Below, piece by piece: positions 24,001-30,000 of a DNA stretch of 64,000 nt. Every line of letters begins with the position of its first letter. The stretch's first letter is position 1. The position numbers are program-made. Source of the stretch: Treponemataceae bacterium (GTDB taxonomy: Bacteria; Spirochaetota; Spirochaetia; Treponematales; Rectinemataceae); contig CAXXGJ010000018.1 of assembly GCA_963677895.2 (NCBI GenBank), positions 32,001-96,000 of the forward strand, given 5' to 3'.

Positions 24001-27000
24001 CCAGGATGAGTGCGGCCAGCATGATGAACATATTCTGCAGGACAATAGGCACGGGGCTTCCGGGCACGGGCAGTGCTATGAAGGCGCCGATGGAAATCAG
24101 CGCCGCGAAAAGGCAGGACAGCACCGCGTTCGTCAGTTCATTGGATTTGCGATTCATTGTTGGCGAACGTACCACCATGGAGAAAACGCGTCAAGCGGAA
24201 GAATGTTGCGGGAACCGGGGGCTCCGTGGTAGCCTGTGATTCCGATGAGCGAAAACAATCTCCGCGTGACCTTCGTCAGCCTCAATATAAAGGAAGACCG
24301 CGGCACGCTGCCCCTTGGGGCCAGCTGCGCGGCGGCTTCCCTCCTGGCCGCGGGGCTGGCGCGCCGCGAGGATATATTCATCCTGGAAGCCTGCGTCGAC
24401 GACGGAGAAGATGAGCTGCTAAGCAGGATTGTCGAAAACCGCCCCCAGGTCGTAGGCTTTTCCCTCTACTGCTGGAATTCCACGGTGTTCGCGGCGCTGG
24501 CGGAGCGGCTGAAGGCCGATTTTCCGGAAATTCTCCTCATCGCGGGAGGACCGGACGCCGAACGTTTCGTTCCGGAGCGGCTGAAGGCGGAAGAGCCGGG
24601 GCGCGCATGCCGCTTCGACGCGCTGTTCCTGGGTGAAGCCGAGGCGAGCCTCCCTGCGTGGCTGGCGGCGGCGACGGCTCCGCTGGCGGCGGCGACGGGA
24701 GCTGCGCTGGCGGCTACGTCCGGCCCAGCCATCATCCGCGGCAAGCCCTGCGACGCGTCTTTCCTCCCTTCTCCCTGGCTGGAAGGAATTCTGGAGCCCC
24801 GGCGCGGAGGGGCCGTGGCATGGGAGCTTACAAGGGGCTGTCCCTTCCGCTGCACCTACTGCTATGAAGGCAGAGGCTTTTCCGGTCTCAGGCACTTCCC
24901 CGCCGAAAGACTGGAGAAGGAACTGGAACTATTTACGCGGAGCGGCGTCAAGGAAGTCTTCGTCCTGGATCCCACCTTCAACACGCAGGGCAAACGTGCC
25001 ATGTCGCTGCTGAGGTTCTTCGCGGAGAAGGGCGGGGATATAGACTGGTATTTCGAGATCCGCGCCGAACTTCTCGACCGGGCGCAGGCGGAAGCATTCG
25101 CCGCCATCCCCTGCTCGCTGCAGATCGGGCTCCAGAGCGTTCGTCCCGAAGTGCTGAAAAATATCGGCAGGGAGATGGACAGGAAAAAATTCGCCTCGAA
25201 AATCGGCCTTCTCAATCAAACAGGAGCCGTATTCGGCCTGGACCTCATCTATGGACTGCCGGGCGACTCGCTTTCCGGTTTTCGCGAAAGCCTCGATTTC
25301 GCCCTTTCCCTGATGCCCAACCATCTCGATATTTTCCCCCTTGCCGTCCTGCCCGGCACAACCCTCCACGGACAAAGCGGGGAATTCGCGCTCGAATTCG
25401 ACAACCAACCGCCCTACTTGGTTAAAAGCCAGCCCGGTTTTTCCGCCGGCGATATGGACGCGGCGGCCAGTCTCGCCCGCGCCTGCGGGACTTTCTATAC
25501 GAAGGGCAGGGCGGTTCCCTGGTTCCTGTCGATCCTGAAGCCCCTGCGCATGCCGCCATCGGCCTTCCTGGCCGGATTCGACACGATGGAGGAGCGGGAG
25601 AAGGCAATGCCGTCGGGGCACGCGGCGATCGAAGCCCTTCAGTGCGCGTACATTTCGCGGCTCTACGCCCGGCAGGGAAGGGATGCCCTGCTGCCCGCCG
25701 CCCTCGATCTGCTGCGCTTCCACGGGGCCTGGTCCAGAGCCTTCGCCGATGGCGAAGCGTCGCGGCTGGAGCTGACCTATCCTCTTCAGTTAGTGGAAAG
25801 CCCGGAGATGCTGGATATCGAATATTTCCGCCGACACAACGACCCTCATCCCTGCCGCGTAGCGATCATGCCGACGAAGGATGGCCCTCGCGCAAGAATT
25901 CTGTCGAAACATGAATAAATATGCTTGACATGCCGTAATGGTTTCTGTATCGTGCCTGTATCTATGAAGCGAAACGTGTTTAACGCCAACTCCAATCTTC
26001 TCAATAATAATAATAACGGAACTGCCGCAGCGGTGCCGGGGCTGTGCGCATAGATAGATGAAGACTGAAATGGGACCGGCCCTTTATGGGGCCGGTTTTT
26101 TTTGGGTCCGCGTCATTGGCGAATGTCCTGAAAGCTTCTTGAAAGGAGGGCGGAGGATGATATTCAGTTATGGCATCCTCATGGGTAATGAGGTCTTTAT
26201 CCGTGACAGTTTCCGGGGAATTTTTGCGGATCCGTTTTTCGGAACGCATGCCTGAGGCCGGCTGGATTAGGCCGGACAATGTAGGATTAAGAATAGGAAC
26301 AACCATGAAGACGATAAAAAGCACGTATGAATATGCAATTCCCGAAAAGGCCGAAACCATCGGCGCCGCCCTTGCCGATTGGCAGGATAGCCTGAAAAAA
26401 AAGGGAGGCTCCTTCAGCGGTCACCTAGGGAAGTACTACCTCAAAAAATGGAATGACCCGCTCCTCGCCGATGTCATGGCGATACGCACGAGTTTCATAC
26501 TCGCCATGCAGGAATTCCTGGCCGAGCGGGGATTGTCCAACATCGACAGGGTATCGCTTTCGCCCATCACCGATCCCCTCTGCCATGATGTCGAGCACGT
26601 TCCCGTCATTCACTACAAGGACGTCCCCTACCGTACGACGCATTCCATGATCTATTCGAAATTCCTGGCATGCATGAACCCCGCGGTCAGGGGCGTGTTC
26701 ATCGATTCACCCAACATCAGGCTGGAACTGCCTCATGAGGATGTCACCAAGCGGAAAAAGTACCTGATCGACTTTTCCCAGATGGATATGGAAGCGAAGC
26801 GCAGCGTCTATATATCGGATGACGATTATTTCGACGATCCCGCCAAGGTTACGCGGCTGCTCGAGAAGGAAAGGGACGAGGCCCTGGATTTCTTCGAGGA
26901 TCTGATCATTTCCGTGGTCAGGAAAGTAAAGGCCGCATGTCCCGAGTGCCTCGCCTCCCTGGGCGTCGCGCTCGATGTTCCTCAGAAACCATTTCCGCGC

Positions 27001-30000
27001 TTCTATAAAGACGAATCCGGGGACGACGAAGGACTCGAGGCGAGGCTTGGCGCGGCGGCGGGCACGCAGTTCTTCTGGGTGCTGGGACTTCTGAGGGAAA
27101 ACTACGATCTTGTCTATCCCTTCCTCAAAAGGGACGGCTCGGTCAGCTCGACCTCAGCCATAAGCTCGCGCCAGGTCTTCAACTACGATCTATGCGCCGC
27201 AGCGAAATATCTGGATGGTTCCTATGGCGAGGCTTTCGAGGTATTGTCGGGAGGCTTGAGGGAATGGTTCTATCCGGCGATCATCGCGCGCTTGTTGCAG
27301 AACGGCATTCTGTCGCAGGCGCCGCGTTTTGACGAACAGGGCGATATCGAGAATATCGAGGCCCTGGAAGGCTATGGCCCCTTCCTCTCCGCTGTGGCGG
27401 CCCGGACGCCCGAGGGGAAATCGCTCTTTCCCCAGACCTTCGGAGGCGGCATCGGCATCGAGAGAACTCTTTTCACGCTGCTGCAGGGACCTAAAATACA
27501 CAGCATCGACGAGACTACGTTCTTCGGGAAGAATCCCGACCAGCCGGGGCCCTTCCTGTTCTAGTCAGTCACTGAACGAAGCTTGGAGGAGGGGCCGTTT
27601 CCGGAGGAAACGGCCCCTCCTTCAGACGCAGTCATTCCCAGTCCAGGAGACGGCGCTGCCCCTGCAAGGCCCTGAGCTCGGTGAGGTCCTGGCTTACCTC
27701 GAGGGTTCCCTTATAGCTGCCTACATCGTCGTACAAGGCATAGTATTCGATGAGGATGAAGCGGCCGCCCATCTCTATCCAGAATCTGGCCTTGTCTTTT
27801 TCCTTGTTCTTGAACGAGGCGAGAATCTTGTTCACCGTATCGACCGATTTCTGCGGGTGGCAGTTCTGGACGGTTCGTCCTATGGCCGCGGGGCTCCGCG
27901 GGAAGAGCCTGTGCGGAGAATCGGAATAATAGAGCACCCTGTCGTTCTCGTCGACGATGCTGATGTCGACGGGCATCGTCTTTAGGGCGATGTCGAGCAG
28001 TTCCTTGGAGACGCGGCCGGTGGAGAGGTTCAGCAGGTCGGCAGGGAGGTCGCGAAGACCGGCGGTCGCCGAAGAGGGCAGGTCGGACGACGCCTCGGGC
28101 GTGGCTGTTGGCGTCGTTGTTGGCGCCACCGCCGCCGTCGCTGACGACGCTTCGGGCACCGCGTTCGCCATCACCAGACCGGCATCGTAGAGCGAAGCCG
28201 GATGAATCCAGGCGAAGCCAATGGCTTCCTCCCCCTGACGGATCTCGGCCCATTCGCGGCTGGTAAGACGTCGCGTCGCTTCGGGAATAAGGATGTTTTC
28301 TTCCATGAAGATCATCTTCCTGATTTTTGAGGCCAGGGTCCTGGCCTGCGCGGAAAATTCGCCGGGCATCCTGTCCAGGGCTTGCCTGGCATCCTTGAAG
28401 AGCGCCCTGATCTCATCGTGCTTGCCCCACATCACGCGGGACGGGCCGGTGAAGCCCTGTTTTTCCAGATAAGGGAAGAGCTGATTTTCTTTCCTGGCGT
28501 AATGGATGATGATGGCCGAAAGATCGTCCAGCGCCTTCTGCGCCGTATCCCTGCTTCCGATTCCCCAGGTCCAGGATCTCGCCGCGGCCTTCAGCGCCGC
28601 GGCTTTCTTCTTCGCGAGCTTGTTTTCCTCGAGCATCGAATGAACGGGATGGCCGGCTATGCCGCTCGGCTTGTCGGCTTTGGCGAGCGAATTCTCGAAA
28701 ACCTGAACATGCACTTCGCAGAGCCTCTGGACTTCTTCGACGGGCATTCCTCCATCGATGAGGGATTGTTCCATGGCCGCCACCTCGGCGGCGCTCACCC
28801 CATGGATCAGTTTCGCGAATTCTTTTTTGACTTCGGAGACAGGGGTCCCTTCATGGAGCCTGCCTATTATTTTTTTCAGCTGTACTTGTCGCTCTGGATC
28901 GATGGTGACATATTCGCCCATTCTTCCCTCCCGCTATGCGAATAGTATAGACGATGGCGCGGAAGAAAGCTGTAACAGGTGTTACGGAACGTCGACTCTT
29001 TCCGAAGCTGAGGCTCAACGATTCGAGTCGGGTTTCGCGTCGGCCGCGGTGAGCCCGAACTTTTCATCTTCGACGTTTCCCAAGGGCTCGATGTGGACGA
29101 TGACATCGTATATGTCGGGGAGCGACTCCTTGATGGATTCCTCCACGTCGACCGCGATTTTATGGGCATCGCGCACGCTCATGCCGGGTTCCACTTCTAT
29201 GTCCAGGTCGACGATGAGCATCGAGCCGATGCGCCGCAGCCGCGCCCTATGAGGGTTGCCTGCCTCCGGCACCCTGGCTATGGCGGCGAAGAGTTCTTTG
29301 TACTGGCCATGGCTGTTAAGGCCGTCCATGAGTTCGGTATTGGCTTCCAGGAATATCTCCACGGCATTTTTGAGAATCCATAGCGATACGAGGGCAGCGA
29401 GAATCTTGTCCATGACCGGGATGCCGGTGATATAGGTCAGAACCAGCCCGACGAGGACGGCGGAGGAAGTCACCACATCGCCGCGCATGTTCTTGCCGTT
29501 GGCTATAAGCATGGCCGAGCCGCTTTTTTTGCCGTAGTAGAACTGGCTCCACGCGAGGGCGAGCTTTCCGATTATGGAGGCGATCGTCACCCATACGGCC
29601 ATCATCGAGGGCATGACGCTCACGGTTCCTCTCGCAATCTGGCCGATCGCGTTTATGAGAACCTGGGCGCCCGCGTAGAATACGATGAAGGAGATGAGGG
29701 CTGTGGCTATCGTCTCGATTCTTCCGTGGCCATAGGGATGTTCCCTGTCGCCGGGCTTGGCCGAAATCTTTCCGGCCACAAGGGTCATGGCGGCGATGAG
29801 GACGTCGGTGGCCGAATCGATGCCGTCCGAGAGCACGGCAAGGCTTCCCGAAACGCTGCCTATTACGATTTTCAGGCTGGCGAGAAGGCTGTTGCCTACG
29901 AGGGCGATCCAGCTCGCTTTGCGCAATGAAGCGCTTCTGCTGTTCATAATGACTCCGCTTGTTTTAGAGGGACTCCAGAATCCCGTCGGCCGCGCGCAGG

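Follow-up and report, generated by a model that had tools for sequence, protein, structure and literature searches.

Leader-peptide attenuators control the his, trp, leu, thr, ilv and pheA operons of enterobacteria (Rfam His_leader, Trp_leader and others). The asnA gene of E. coli has AsnC as its activator, and Asn-specific T-boxes control asnS or asnA in Firmicutes. Part of a preprint on mycobacteria (bioRxiv 10.1101/834739) describes leaderless short ORFs that encode polycysteine and act as cysteine-responsive attenuators. Part of a paper on Thermus and Deinococcus (PMC2330236) describes tRNA-dependent asparagine synthesis by a non-discriminating aspartyl-tRNA synthetase (AspRS) and GatCAB, which occurs there alongside asparaginyl-tRNA synthetase (AsnRS).

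The locus described here is found in a 64,000-nucleotide stretch (the window; positions 32,001 to 96,000 of contig CAXXGJ010000018.1) from a Treponemataceae bacterium of the family Rectinemataceae. It very likely carries a ribosome-mediated, leader-peptide attenuator of transcription, with the Asn-tRNA(Asn) supply as its input, and belongs to the switch of a small regulon. The gene that follows (X) would most likely encode a tRNA-independent asparagine synthetase. An earlier note on this DNA had found no description of leader-peptide attenuation keyed to asparagine, and our literature searches likewise found no published case.

The leader locus

Table 1. Features of the leader locus and gene X. 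Coordinates are window positions, and all elements are on the + strand.
Feature	Position	Strand	Description
Promoter	25925-25953	+	-35 TTGACA 25925-25930, 17-nt spacer, -10 TATCGT 25948-25953
Leader ORF	25964-26053	+	ATG 25964, TAG 26051-26053; 29 codons plus stop
Regulatory codons	26003-26017	+	AAT AAT AAT AAT AAC, five Asn
Hairpin right after the Asn run	26017-26038	+	Region 1 (26017-26025) pairs with 26030-26038
Region 2, predicted antiterminator 5' strand	26030-26041	+	GCGGTGCCGGGG; last third of the leader ORF
Intrinsic terminator	26072-26103	+	5' arm (region 3) 26072-26082, loop, 3' arm (region 4) 26088-26096, T8 26096-26103
Second conserved element	26145-26255	+	Strong Shine-Dalgarno GGAGG 26145-26149; uORF2 from ATG 26157 to TGA 26255
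Gene X	26305-27564	+	419 aa; class II aminoacyl-tRNA synthetase catalytic core

The leader ORF (Table 1) encodes MKRNVFNANSNLLNNNNNGTAAAVPGLCA, in which nine codons are Asn and five of these are consecutive. Direct reading and a pattern scan bear out the promoter, whose hexamers match the consensus at 10 of 12 positions, as well as the ORF and the U8-tailed hairpin, all of which the earlier note had reported. The host genome is 56% G+C, and Asn represents 2.9% of the codons in 1517 long ORFs. At this frequency, the probability of at least 9 Asn among 28 codons is roughly 5e-8, so the Asn richness is unlikely to reflect chance. When the whole genome was scanned for terminators preceded by a short ORF that repeats one residue in a row, 71 matches were obtained, among which the window ORF alone has at least four consecutive Asn codons.

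As was also noted earlier, the window sequence includes no Shine-Dalgarno sequence before the leader ORF. The ATG is 10 nt downstream of the -10 hexamer, and in 32 of 33 leaders, 29-34 nt separate the end of the -35 hexamer from the ATG (here and in all counts below, the family genomes are relatives, not independent samples). This kept spacing, on which the proposal of leaderless initiation is based, would explain the absent Shine-Dalgarno sequence, as it implies that the mRNA probably has no 5' UTR or one of about 3 nt. The RNA-library contigs that were found all lie within the X coding region, and so are uninformative on the leader.

Terminator and predicted alternative pairing

The earlier claims that the terminator carries compensatory changes and that its 5' arm has an alternative partner at the end of the ORF both hold in a larger alignment. 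The terminator hairpin, GGGACCGGCCC/GGGGCCGG(T), comprises 12 pairs, 7 of them G-C. Among relatives, 97.9% of the aligned cells are paired, and compensatory changes occur at 6 of 10 pairs. None of 500 shuffles reached this covariation, and a second structure analysis agrees.

The predicted antiterminator consists of region 2, at the 3' end of the ORF, and the terminator 5' arm (alignment columns 44-52 with 104-112). Region 2 is 15 nt past the last Asn codon and 10 nt ahead of the stop codon. The antiterminator columns are paired in 86.8% of cells, compared with 25-53% in slid controls. Double changes occur at two pairs (G-C 17 / G-U 8 / A-U 3 and G-C 13 / A-U 7), and because the CCGG/CCGG core is invariant, the antiterminator covariation rests on these two pairs; the shuffle control is moderate (16-19 of 500). 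In individual leaders, the duplex of region 2 and the 5' arm has p <= 0.05 in 16 of 37 (median z -1.6). The leaders were also folded without the terminator 3' arm and with the last Asn codon masked to represent a ribosome. In 24 of 28, region 2 and the 5' arm are then paired in the minimum free-energy (MFE) structure, and the antiterminator is not formed in the other 4. Region 2 also tracks divergent terminators, in that leaders with a different terminator sequence have an altered region 2. For example, region 2 of L093 is GGGGCGCCGG and pairs with CCGGCGCCTC (0 of 300 shuffles are as good), and that of L110 is GGGGGTGCC, which pairs with GGCACCCCT (p 0.003).

The hairpin that joins regions 1 and 2 is seen in both the MFE and the centroid fold of the window leader. 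It is not general, because a strict criterion finds it in 12 of 35 relatives, with no fixed alignment register.

Conservation in Rectinemataceae

Homologues of X are found in 30 of 69 family genomes. An Asn-rich ORF of 24-35 codons, a hairpin and a T-run precede X in all 28 loci that have upstream sequence; two further loci, L005 and L010, are cut by contig ends. The cultured Rectinema subterraneum SURF-ANA1 (L133) is among those that carry the leader. The count includes variants inspected by eye, with the runs N-D-N-N (L015) and N-R-N-N-R-N (L027 and L030). The leader had previously been counted in 15 of 18 loci. Its conservation stands, but with more genomes and these variants, none of the 28 loci lacks it.

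The number of consecutive Asn codons varies from 3 to 5 among relatives and changes by whole codons; L002 and a contig of run X20 have exactly one AAT codon fewer. The leader peptides are divergent apart from the Asn run and the part encoded by region 2, and their indels are whole codons. The geometry is constant in 35 first-unit leaders, with the stop codon 33-42 nt past the last Asn codon and the 5' arm a further 20-31 nt downstream.

It might be supposed that the hairpin is a mere terminator of the upstream radical-SAM gene and that the Asn-rich ORF is a chance frame. No other terminator lies between the stop codon of that gene (25918) and the hairpin, so read-through from it probably stops at the hairpin as well. 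However, the element has its own conserved promoter, the ORF is kept in 28 of 28 loci, genus g18 has a divergently oriented gene upstream, and the Asn content would arise by chance with the probability of about 5e-8 given above. As a full account of the locus, this supposition is almost certainly wrong.

Other genes under Asn and His leaders

A covariance model of the leader (R1), run on the 69 family genomes, yields 33 strong matches (E <= 6e-11). X accounts for 29 of them, and the other 4 are in genus g12, whose four genomes all lack X and have one leader match each. The g12 leader (e.g., MMFLSSVPFRNNSNNNNRPSAAAGPVQRA) and its terminator are located upstream of an operon containing gatA (464 bits), gatB (569 bits) and an aspartate-tRNA(Asn) ligase gene (505 bits). 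Also, a second copy of asnS has a similar Asn leader upstream in 5 of 5 loci examined. The occurrence of one leader type at X, at gatA-gatB-aspS (non-discriminating) and at the second asnS is suggestive of a switch that controls a small asparagine regulon. We regard this set of putatively regulated genes as the decisive new evidence for an Asn attenuator. The three target gene sets, the Asn-codon leader, the covarying terminator and the alternative pairing together support the trp/his-type attenuator proposed in the earlier note. Similarly, hisG-hisC in the family, including this genome, has His-codon leaders upstream that share the promoter spacing and the type of terminator, so the family would use the mechanism for a second amino acid.

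These targets bear on another suggestion made for the locus, namely that the small ORF encodes a RiPP precursor, matured by the upstream B12-radical-SAM enzyme and/or X, and that the hairpin only balances precursor against enzyme. RiPP clusters often have a hairpin between the precursor gene and the enzyme gene. The product of the upstream gene (560 aa) has B12-binding and radical-SAM domains and weakly matches RiPP methyltransferase families, and the C-terminal part of the peptide (AAAVPxLxA / EPEP) is conserved. However, this part corresponds to the stretch of RNA whose complement is the terminator arm, and it varies with the arm, the number of Asn codons is variable, and the homologous leaders at gatA-gatB-aspS and asnS precede housekeeping genes, not maturases. 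The neighbourhood has no gene for a protease, an exporter or immunity, and the downstream gene is convergent. We rejected a RiPP precursor, which appears extremely improbable, because the radical-SAM gene is not conserved together with the leader: it is upstream in just 11 of 30 loci and is missing at 13 of 13 g18 loci and also at the g13 and g8 loci, all of which keep an intact leader.

The terminator could instead be controlled by a protein, by uncharged tRNA, as in the Asn T-boxes of Firmicutes, or by a metabolite-binding RNA, with the reading frame incidental. The missing Shine-Dalgarno sequence would fit such control. It is nonetheless very unlikely, given that the frame, the promoter-start distance, the Asn run and the stop-terminator distance are kept in leaders that otherwise differ, that indels preserve codons, and that hisG is preceded by His leaders of like build. 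In addition, the leader matches no Rfam family (best score 22.9 bits, compared with a gathering score of 65.6) and no T-box.

The product of gene X

The earlier note described X as distantly similar to archaeal asparagine synthetase A (AsnA) and as having no Pfam row. The similarity is upheld: the best PDB sequence matches are archaeal AsnA structures 1nnh and 3p8t (profile E 2e-18), and the best fold matches are 3rl6, 3rex and 3reu (TM 0.77 over the target). As for Pfam, nothing exceeds the cut-off, but there is one sub-threshold row, tRNA-synt_2, at 18.8 bits against 25. The class II motif residues are invariant across 28 X homologues. No anticodon-binding domain is found in X, and alignments cover the catalytic core only. 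Relatives of X number 316 among GTDB species representatives and occur in several phyla.

X is probably an ammonia-dependent, archaeal AsnA-type asparagine synthetase. Its homologues are present in 20 of the 21 family genomes that have AsnRS but lack asnA, gatB and above-cut-off asnB, and in 10 of the remaining 48. This gap-filling pattern supports a role as asparagine synthetase. The window genome also encodes an E. coli-type asnA (416 bits), so X is not the sole asparagine route in this organism; that asnA has no leader upstream.

Alternatively, the attenuator might sense Asn, whereas X is some other Asn-related enzyme with a synthetase core, for instance one acting on tRNA(Asn) or a different acceptor, and genomes with X only are asparagine auxotrophs. 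Truncated synthetase paralogues with different acceptors do exist (EpmA/PoxA and GluQRS). X is annotated as asparaginyl-tRNA synthetase by IMG and as a hypothetical protein by NCBI, and it scores 111 bits with the NCBIfam asparagine synthetase A model, far under the 309 cut-off. It exceeds the archaeal enzyme in length by about 125 residues, and its N-terminal helical extension and long insertion have no counterpart there. Moreover, the second asnS, which encodes a true AsnRS, has an Asn leader too, so regulon membership cannot separate making Asn from using it. Against this alternative, which we consider unlikely, are the bare catalytic core, the position of archaeal AsnA structures as nearest solved relatives by both sequence and fold, the presence of X in nearly all genomes without another Asn route, and the biosynthetic nature of the gatA-gatB-aspS route under the same leader.

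Proposed mechanism and a second conserved element

In the attenuator model, transcription would begin at the leader ATG or just a few bases upstream of it, and a ribosome would load on the leaderless or nearly leaderless mRNA as the polymerase advances. When Asn-tRNA is plentiful, the ribosome would pass the five Asn codons and reach the stop codon, thereby covering region 2. The G+C-rich hairpin and its U8 tail could then form, and transcription would stop after about 140 nt. When Asn-tRNA is scarce, the ribosome is predicted to stall at the Asn run, where it would cover region 1 and free region 2 to pair with the terminator 5' arm. No terminator would form, and the polymerase would continue into X. 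If no ribosome is stalled, the hairpin of regions 1 and 2 would sequester region 2. Asparagine shortage thus most likely switches on X and, in relatives, two other asparagine-supply gene sets.

The second conserved element, located between the terminator and X, is found in 20 of 28 X loci. The uORF2 product, MIFSYGILMGNEVF..., has an invariant Gly-Asn at codons 10-11 (GGT AAT, 26184-26189). The uORF2 start codon lies within a hairpin, GAGGATG/CATCCTC (26153-26159 with 26174-26180), which is 96.4% paired, with one pair varying as G-C 13 / A-U 7. The attenuator model leaves the conserved uORF2 unaccounted for.

Comparison with known systems

AsnC of E. coli and the Asn T-boxes of Firmicutes resemble the system proposed here in providing feedback by asparagine or tRNA(Asn) status. 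In contrast to a DNA-binding protein or a direct tRNA-RNA contact, the sensor here would be a translating ribosome, and the leader has no T-box match.

Archaeal AsnA (an AsnRS paralogue; 1nnh, 3p8t, 3reu, 3rex, 3rl6) shares with X a class II core without an anticodon-binding domain, and the motif residues NIRLE, SQxD, SGGxRE and GGGxGxER are kept. X differs in being only 23-25% identical, in its length (419 versus 294 residues), in its N-terminal extension and long helical insertion, and in being bacterial and widespread; it falls under the NCBIfam cut-off, and its synthetase activity is predicted.

Genus g12 is like Thermus and Deinococcus in having AsnRS, GatB and aspartate-tRNA(Asn) ligase without asnA or asnB, an arrangement that part of the paper on those organisms describes as the sole route to Asn (PMC2330236). 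Compared with what that part describes, g12 differs in that a predicted Asn leader-peptide attenuator precedes its gatA-gatB operon. Our literature searches found no report of leader-peptide attenuator control of the gatA-gatB-AspRS route.

The mycobacterial polycysteine ORFs, as presented in part of the preprint (bioRxiv 10.1101/834739), resemble the system proposed here in that a short regulatory ORF, rich in codons for one amino acid, lies at the extreme 5' end of a leaderless mRNA and controls genes for that amino acid downstream. The amino acid and the phylum are different, and the leaders described here have a canonical, covarying intrinsic terminator and an antiterminator.

The enterobacterial attenuators share with the one proposed here a short ORF with a cluster of end-product codons, an intrinsic terminator and an alternative pairing that depends on ribosome position, and their regulated genes make the amino acid that is read. 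In contrast, the leaders found here use Asn codons, occur in the phylum Spirochaetota, match no Rfam model, and have no Shine-Dalgarno sequence and a spacing that suggests leaderless mRNA. Their region 1:2 hairpin is not general, and one leader type serves three non-homologous target gene sets.

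Asparagine-rich leaders upstream of gene X

Gene X encodes a protein with a class II aminoacyl-tRNA synthetase core, and the sequence between it and the preceding radical-SAM gene, whose end at 25918 lies seven bases 5' of the -35 hexamer, contains the features listed in the table. An earlier note had described the promoter, an asparagine-rich ORF, a hairpin with eight T residues and the gene; reading of the sequence together with a pattern scan bears out this description, save that the ORF coordinates come out one base lower. The note had also read the element as an attenuator keyed to asparagine. 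We agree that it is very probably an Asn-responsive, ribosome-mediated transcription attenuator, and the decisive evidence is its regulon, which includes X, a gat operon and a second asnS gene.

Features of the leader region and gene X (coordinates count along the window)
Feature	Position	Strand	Basis
Promoter	-35 TTGACA 25925-25930, 17-nt spacer, -10 TATCGT 25948-25953	+	read from sequence and pattern scan
Leader ORF MKRNVFNANSNLLNNNNNGTAAAVPGLCA	ATG 25964, TAG 26051-26053, 29 codons	+	read from sequence
Asn run, AAT x4 then AAC	26003-26017	+	five consecutive codons
Terminator	5' arm 26072-26082, 3' arm 26088-26096, eight T 26096-26103	+	pattern scan
uORF2 element, Shine-Dalgarno GGAGG and small frame	26145-26255; frame 26157-26255	+	20 of 28 X loci
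Gene X, 419 aa	26305-27564	+	

The leader ORF devotes nine of its 29 codons to asparagine, five of them consecutive. Asparagine accounts for 2.9% of codons in 1517 long ORFs of this genome (56% G+C), and at that frequency the chance of at least nine Asn in 28 codons is about 5e-8. A genome-wide scan for short ORFs that carry a residue run and are followed by a terminator returned 71 matches, among which at least four consecutive Asn codons occur only in this leader. The low probability and the single such match imply that the Asn frame is not accidental. Within 25600-26600, a scan with Rfam at E <= 10 gave chance-level matches only, and the T-box covariance model gave no match at the same threshold.

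Sequencing-run contigs matching this region give no transcript start, end or level, and nothing on the leader. They comprise one 151-nt contig inside X (27348-27498) from an RNA library (run X19) and three contigs within 26290-27574, at 90-95% identity, from run X18, which is RNA by guess only. A third run, X20, is probably DNA. The contigs of all these runs represent small shares.

Conservation of the leader and the RiPP alternative

Homologues of X are encoded in 30 of the 69 species genomes of the Rectinemataceae. An Asn-rich frame of 24-35 codons, a G+C-rich hairpin and a T-run are found in all 28 loci that have upstream sequence, two further loci (L005 and L010) being left out of the count because contig ends cut them. 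The Asn run consists of three to five consecutive codons, save for the variants N-D-N-N (L015) and N-R-N-N-R-N (L027 and L030). One AAT codon of the run (window 26003) is missing in the sister-genome locus L002 and likewise in an environmental contig from run X20, so the number of regulatory codons is polymorphic among close relatives. The cultured Rectinema subterraneum SURF-ANA1 (L133/L021) carries the leader MARIFFGNNGNLLNNNAAPDAGPKPKI upstream of its X gene, which makes the element directly testable. Outside the family, no Asn leader precedes X homologues at 29 loci of other Spirochaetota or at 56 loci (L139-L194) of other lineages. In another family (f41; L041, L043, L048, L050 and others), the X homologue lacks the leader and has instead a conserved promoter-proximal block, AAAATAATATTTGACAATGA ... 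ATCACAATTTGC, which is possibly an operator for a repressor.

The leader peptides diverge widely (for example, MKRNTFIVDFLNNNNGTAAAVPELRA, MVRVSFGNNGNLLNNNNPRHAEPEPKL and MSKSAPLVLRTNNNNNRTAAAAEPVPRA). What is kept is the Asn run and the C-terminal part, the latter corresponding to the nucleotide block GCGGnGCCGG in an alignment of 28 leaders (A1), and indels inside the frame are multiples of three. The B12-radical-SAM gene upstream might suggest that the peptide is the precursor of a ribosomally synthesized, modified peptide (RiPP), as the earlier note had cautioned. This alternative is rejected: a radical-SAM gene lies upstream of the leader in only 11 of 30 loci, so that no constant maturase linkage exists; in all 13 loci of genus g18 the upstream gene is divergent and the leader is intact; and leaders occur before gat and asnS genes as well. 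The pairing of the underlying RNA block with a terminator arm explains the conserved C-terminus.

Terminator, antiterminator and spacing

On alignment A1, the terminator is paired in 97.9% of cells, compared with 24-62% in slid controls. Compensatory changes are found in six of its ten pairs (for example, A-U in 15 leaders and G-C in 13), and none of 500 column shuffles reached the observed values. The antiterminator, in which the block at the 3' end of the ORF pairs with the terminator 5' arm, is paired in 86.8% of cells versus 25-53% when slid. In two of its pairs both partners have changed. Of 500 shuffles, 16-19 were equally good; the core CCGG is invariant, so the pairing support is moderate rather than strong. 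Tested as duplexes against dinucleotide shuffles of the ORF 3' window, 16 of 37 leaders reached p <= 0.05; the median z was -1.6.

When the 14 nucleotides from the last Asn codon were masked, representing a stalled ribosome, and the 3' arm was omitted as not yet transcribed, the minimum-energy structure paired the terminator 5' arm with the ORF block in 24 of 28 leaders. The clearest antiterminators belong to two leaders whose divergent terminators are matched by altered ORF blocks: in L093 the block GGGGCGCCGG pairs with CCGGCGCCTC, and in L110 the block GGGGGTGCC pairs with GGCACCCCT.

Spacing is tight across leaders: 33-42 nucleotides separate the last Asn codon and the stop, and 20-31 separate the stop and the terminator arm. 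On the leader in the window, a ribosome whose A site contains an Asn codon would extend to approximately 26030, the first base of the ORF block (region 2, 26030-26041). Region 2 ends about 10 nucleotides 5' of the stop codon, and a ribosome standing at that codon would mask most of it. Absent a stalled ribosome, the block would be sequestered by a hairpin of region 2 with region 1 (26017-26025), directly 3' of the Asn run. This hairpin appears in the minimum-energy and centroid folds of the window leader and in several genera. It is not general: 12 of 35 leaders have it by a strict criterion, and in a fixed register on a MAFFT alignment 56.7% is paired, no better than controls.

A probable leaderless start

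The earlier note had counted the lack of a clear Shine-Dalgarno sequence against the leader ORF. There is indeed none, but the spacing of promoter and start codon would remove the objection. Between the end of the -35 hexamer and the leader ATG lie 29-34 nucleotides in 32 of 33 leaders; allowing for a spacer of 17 nt and a -10 element of 6 nt, the ATG falls 6-11 nucleotides past the -10 hexamer. Because the ATG thus lies at, or a few bases from, the expected transcription start, we infer that the mRNA is leaderless or nearly so.

Asparagine and histidine leaders across the family

A covariance model built from A1 (R1) was searched against all 69 family genomes and yielded 33 strong full-length matches (E <= 6e-11; next best, 2e-6). 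Twenty-nine are at X. The remaining four come from genus g12, whose four genomes all lack X; there the peptides MMFLSSVPFRNNSNNNNRPSAAAGPVQRA, MMFLSIEFSPTNSNNNNRPSAAAGPVQRA, MSIRWLPIFRNNSNNNRPTAAAGPVQRA and MISIARRILALNWNNNGPSAAAGPVQRA, each followed by a terminator, lie upstream of a gat operon. The operon, whose gene families were checked for locus L089 only, contains a 138-aa ORF, gatA (TIGR00132, 464 bits), gatB (NF004012, 569 bits) and an aspartate-tRNA(Asn) ligase gene (NF003483, 505 bits). The 138-aa ORF (L089:334-750), between the Asn leader and gatA, has no NCBIfam match; a divergent gatC may lie within it. The operon represents the tRNA-dependent route, which has been described as the only source of asparagine where AsnRS is present and AsnA and AsnB are lacking (PMC2330236).

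A weaker R1 match led to a second copy of asnS in genome G015 (NF003037, 439 bits). All five second asnS copies examined (G015, G017, G032, G052 and G003) are preceded by an Asn-rich leader and terminator. Three of the five loci (L093, L109 and L112), and also X of genus g8 (L027 and L030), have tandem leader/terminator units, of which the first is short and apparently leaderless, and the second has a Shine-Dalgarno sequence and a longer peptide with the Asn run near its stop (as in ...DPDNNNSNNRPPA and ...RNNNCNNNRNNSPPA). In the window's genome, no leader precedes the main asnS or the E. coli-type asnA. At the gat operons of G014 and G030, neither R1 nor a pattern scan of the 3.1 kb before gatB found one.

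The remaining weak R1 matches are gene-end terminators, which are false, or histidine leaders. The latter (for example, MKGTSVKKALNLHHHHGFFTWSRG) occur before hisG-hisC and share the promoter spacing and terminator type of the Asn leaders. Such leaders, of which MKGISVGKILNLHHHHGFGKWSRSEVWA is another example, are found at L098:93-203 and also at L094, L096, L100, L101, L106 and L107, directly before hisG-hisC. The window's genome has one, MNSTVSATNGFTTLHHSHGHHLRSPGSSRA, outside the window (contig C21:126248), 250 nucleotides upstream of hisG. The family thus very probably employs attenuation of the classical leader-peptide kind, the asparagine version being built on the same plan. Leader-peptide attenuation is not known to us from spirochaetes, and a literature search turned up no report of it.

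Identity and role of X

Existing names for X are hypothetical protein (NCBI/RefSeq) and, wrongly, asparaginyl-tRNA synthetase (IMG). In Pfam it matches tRNA-synt_2 only, below threshold. Against the NCBIfam asparagine synthetase A models NF005054 and NF005052 it scores 111.1 bits (cut-off 309) and 60.4 bits (cut-off 368), and X is accordingly a distant relative rather than an equivalog member. Its best solved sequence relatives are 1nnh and 3p8t, archaeal AsnRS-like asparagine synthetase A (E 2e-12 with the single sequence, 2e-18 with a profile). The best fold matches of an AlphaFold model (pLDDT 84) are 3rl6, 3rex and 3reu, at TM 0.77 over the target and 23-25% identity, followed by the catalytic domains of archaeal AspRS and AsnRS. 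The class II motif residues do not vary among 28 homologues, and the anticodon-binding domain is absent. An in-frame ATG upstream, at 26170, was rejected as the start of X, since relatives do not keep the extended frame open.

The distribution of X also bears on its function. In 48 of the 69 genomes there is asnA (23, two of them truncated by contig ends), asnB scoring over cut-off (34) or gatB (6); 10 of the 48 also have X. Among the 21 genomes that have none of the three, X is present in 20. The exception, G016 (genus g8, 99% complete), is the sole genome of the 69 without asnA, asnB over cut-off, gatB or X; it has AsnRS, which 64 of the 69 have in all, and is a candidate asparagine auxotroph. 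This pattern spans about seven genera and fits an asparagine synthetase, in a tally whose members include kin that are not independent and genomes down to 69% complete. The position of X behind an Asn attenuator is further, indirect evidence. It is likely that X makes asparagine, presumably from aspartate, ATP and ammonia.

Relatives of X, at 43-53% identity, are found in 32 of 400 sampled genomes of other Spirochaetota and also in many other phyla, with 316 relatives among species representatives; the family is seen in Spirochaetota, Planctomycetota, Fibrobacterota, Desulfobacterota and others. A convergent DUF438-hemerythrin-PAS gene (27632-28921, minus strand) follows X. Its position is conserved in most loci, in several genera, and it has no evident functional link to asparagine.

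A second conserved element

In 20 of 28 loci, a strong, well-spaced GGAGG precedes a second small frame (uORF2) between the terminator and X. Its first eleven codons read M-x5-[IVF]-[LP]-x-G-N, in which the Gly-Asn at codons 10-11 is invariant and its codons vary synonymously only (GGT/GGC, AAT/AAC). Beyond this Asn codon, both length and sequence vary. The start codon is inside a hairpin of seven pairs that is 96.4% paired, with one pair being G-C in 13 sequences and A-U in seven. Another hairpin from the pattern scan, CCTCAT/ATGAGG at 26177-26193, was dropped, as it is not kept in L002 or L004.

Loci without uORF2 have the terminator directly before X (genera g13 and g17) or a complete second attenuator in its place (g8), and such a second attenuator also replaces uORF2 at three second-asnS loci. 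We suspect that uORF2 is a second asparagine checkpoint on the read-through transcript, which could act via translation or Rho. A broader proposal, that asparagine control is two-tiered (the attenuator, then the uORF2 checkpoint) and that X is a third kind of bacterial asparagine synthetase, is speculative, and we regard it as rather doubtful.

Comparison with known attenuators

Leader-peptide attenuation is known for a handful of amino acids, mostly in Proteobacteria and Actinobacteria, and an asparagine-keyed attenuator in spirochaetes widens both its chemistry and its phylogenetic range. The earlier note had found no description of the asparagine type, and our full-text literature searches, which did not reach most subscription journals, likewise turned up neither such an attenuator nor control of gatCAB/aspS or asnS by a leader peptide; a case may exist in older comparative-genomics papers.

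The regulon gives a testable function to a widespread, unannotated family related to aminoacyl-tRNA synthetases. If X is an asparagine synthetase, it would fill an apparent gap in asparagine synthesis in many anaerobe genomes. Three unrelated asparagine-supply systems stand behind one leader, a natural experiment in the re-use of a regulatory module upon pathway replacement.

The mechanism of attenuation is classical. New are the specificity for asparagine, the phylum, the likely leaderless start and the use of one leader before these three systems. The closest published architecture is that of the leaderless polycysteine ORFs reported in mycobacteria (10.1101/834739), and the Asn leaders would be a rare second case of leaderless leader peptides.
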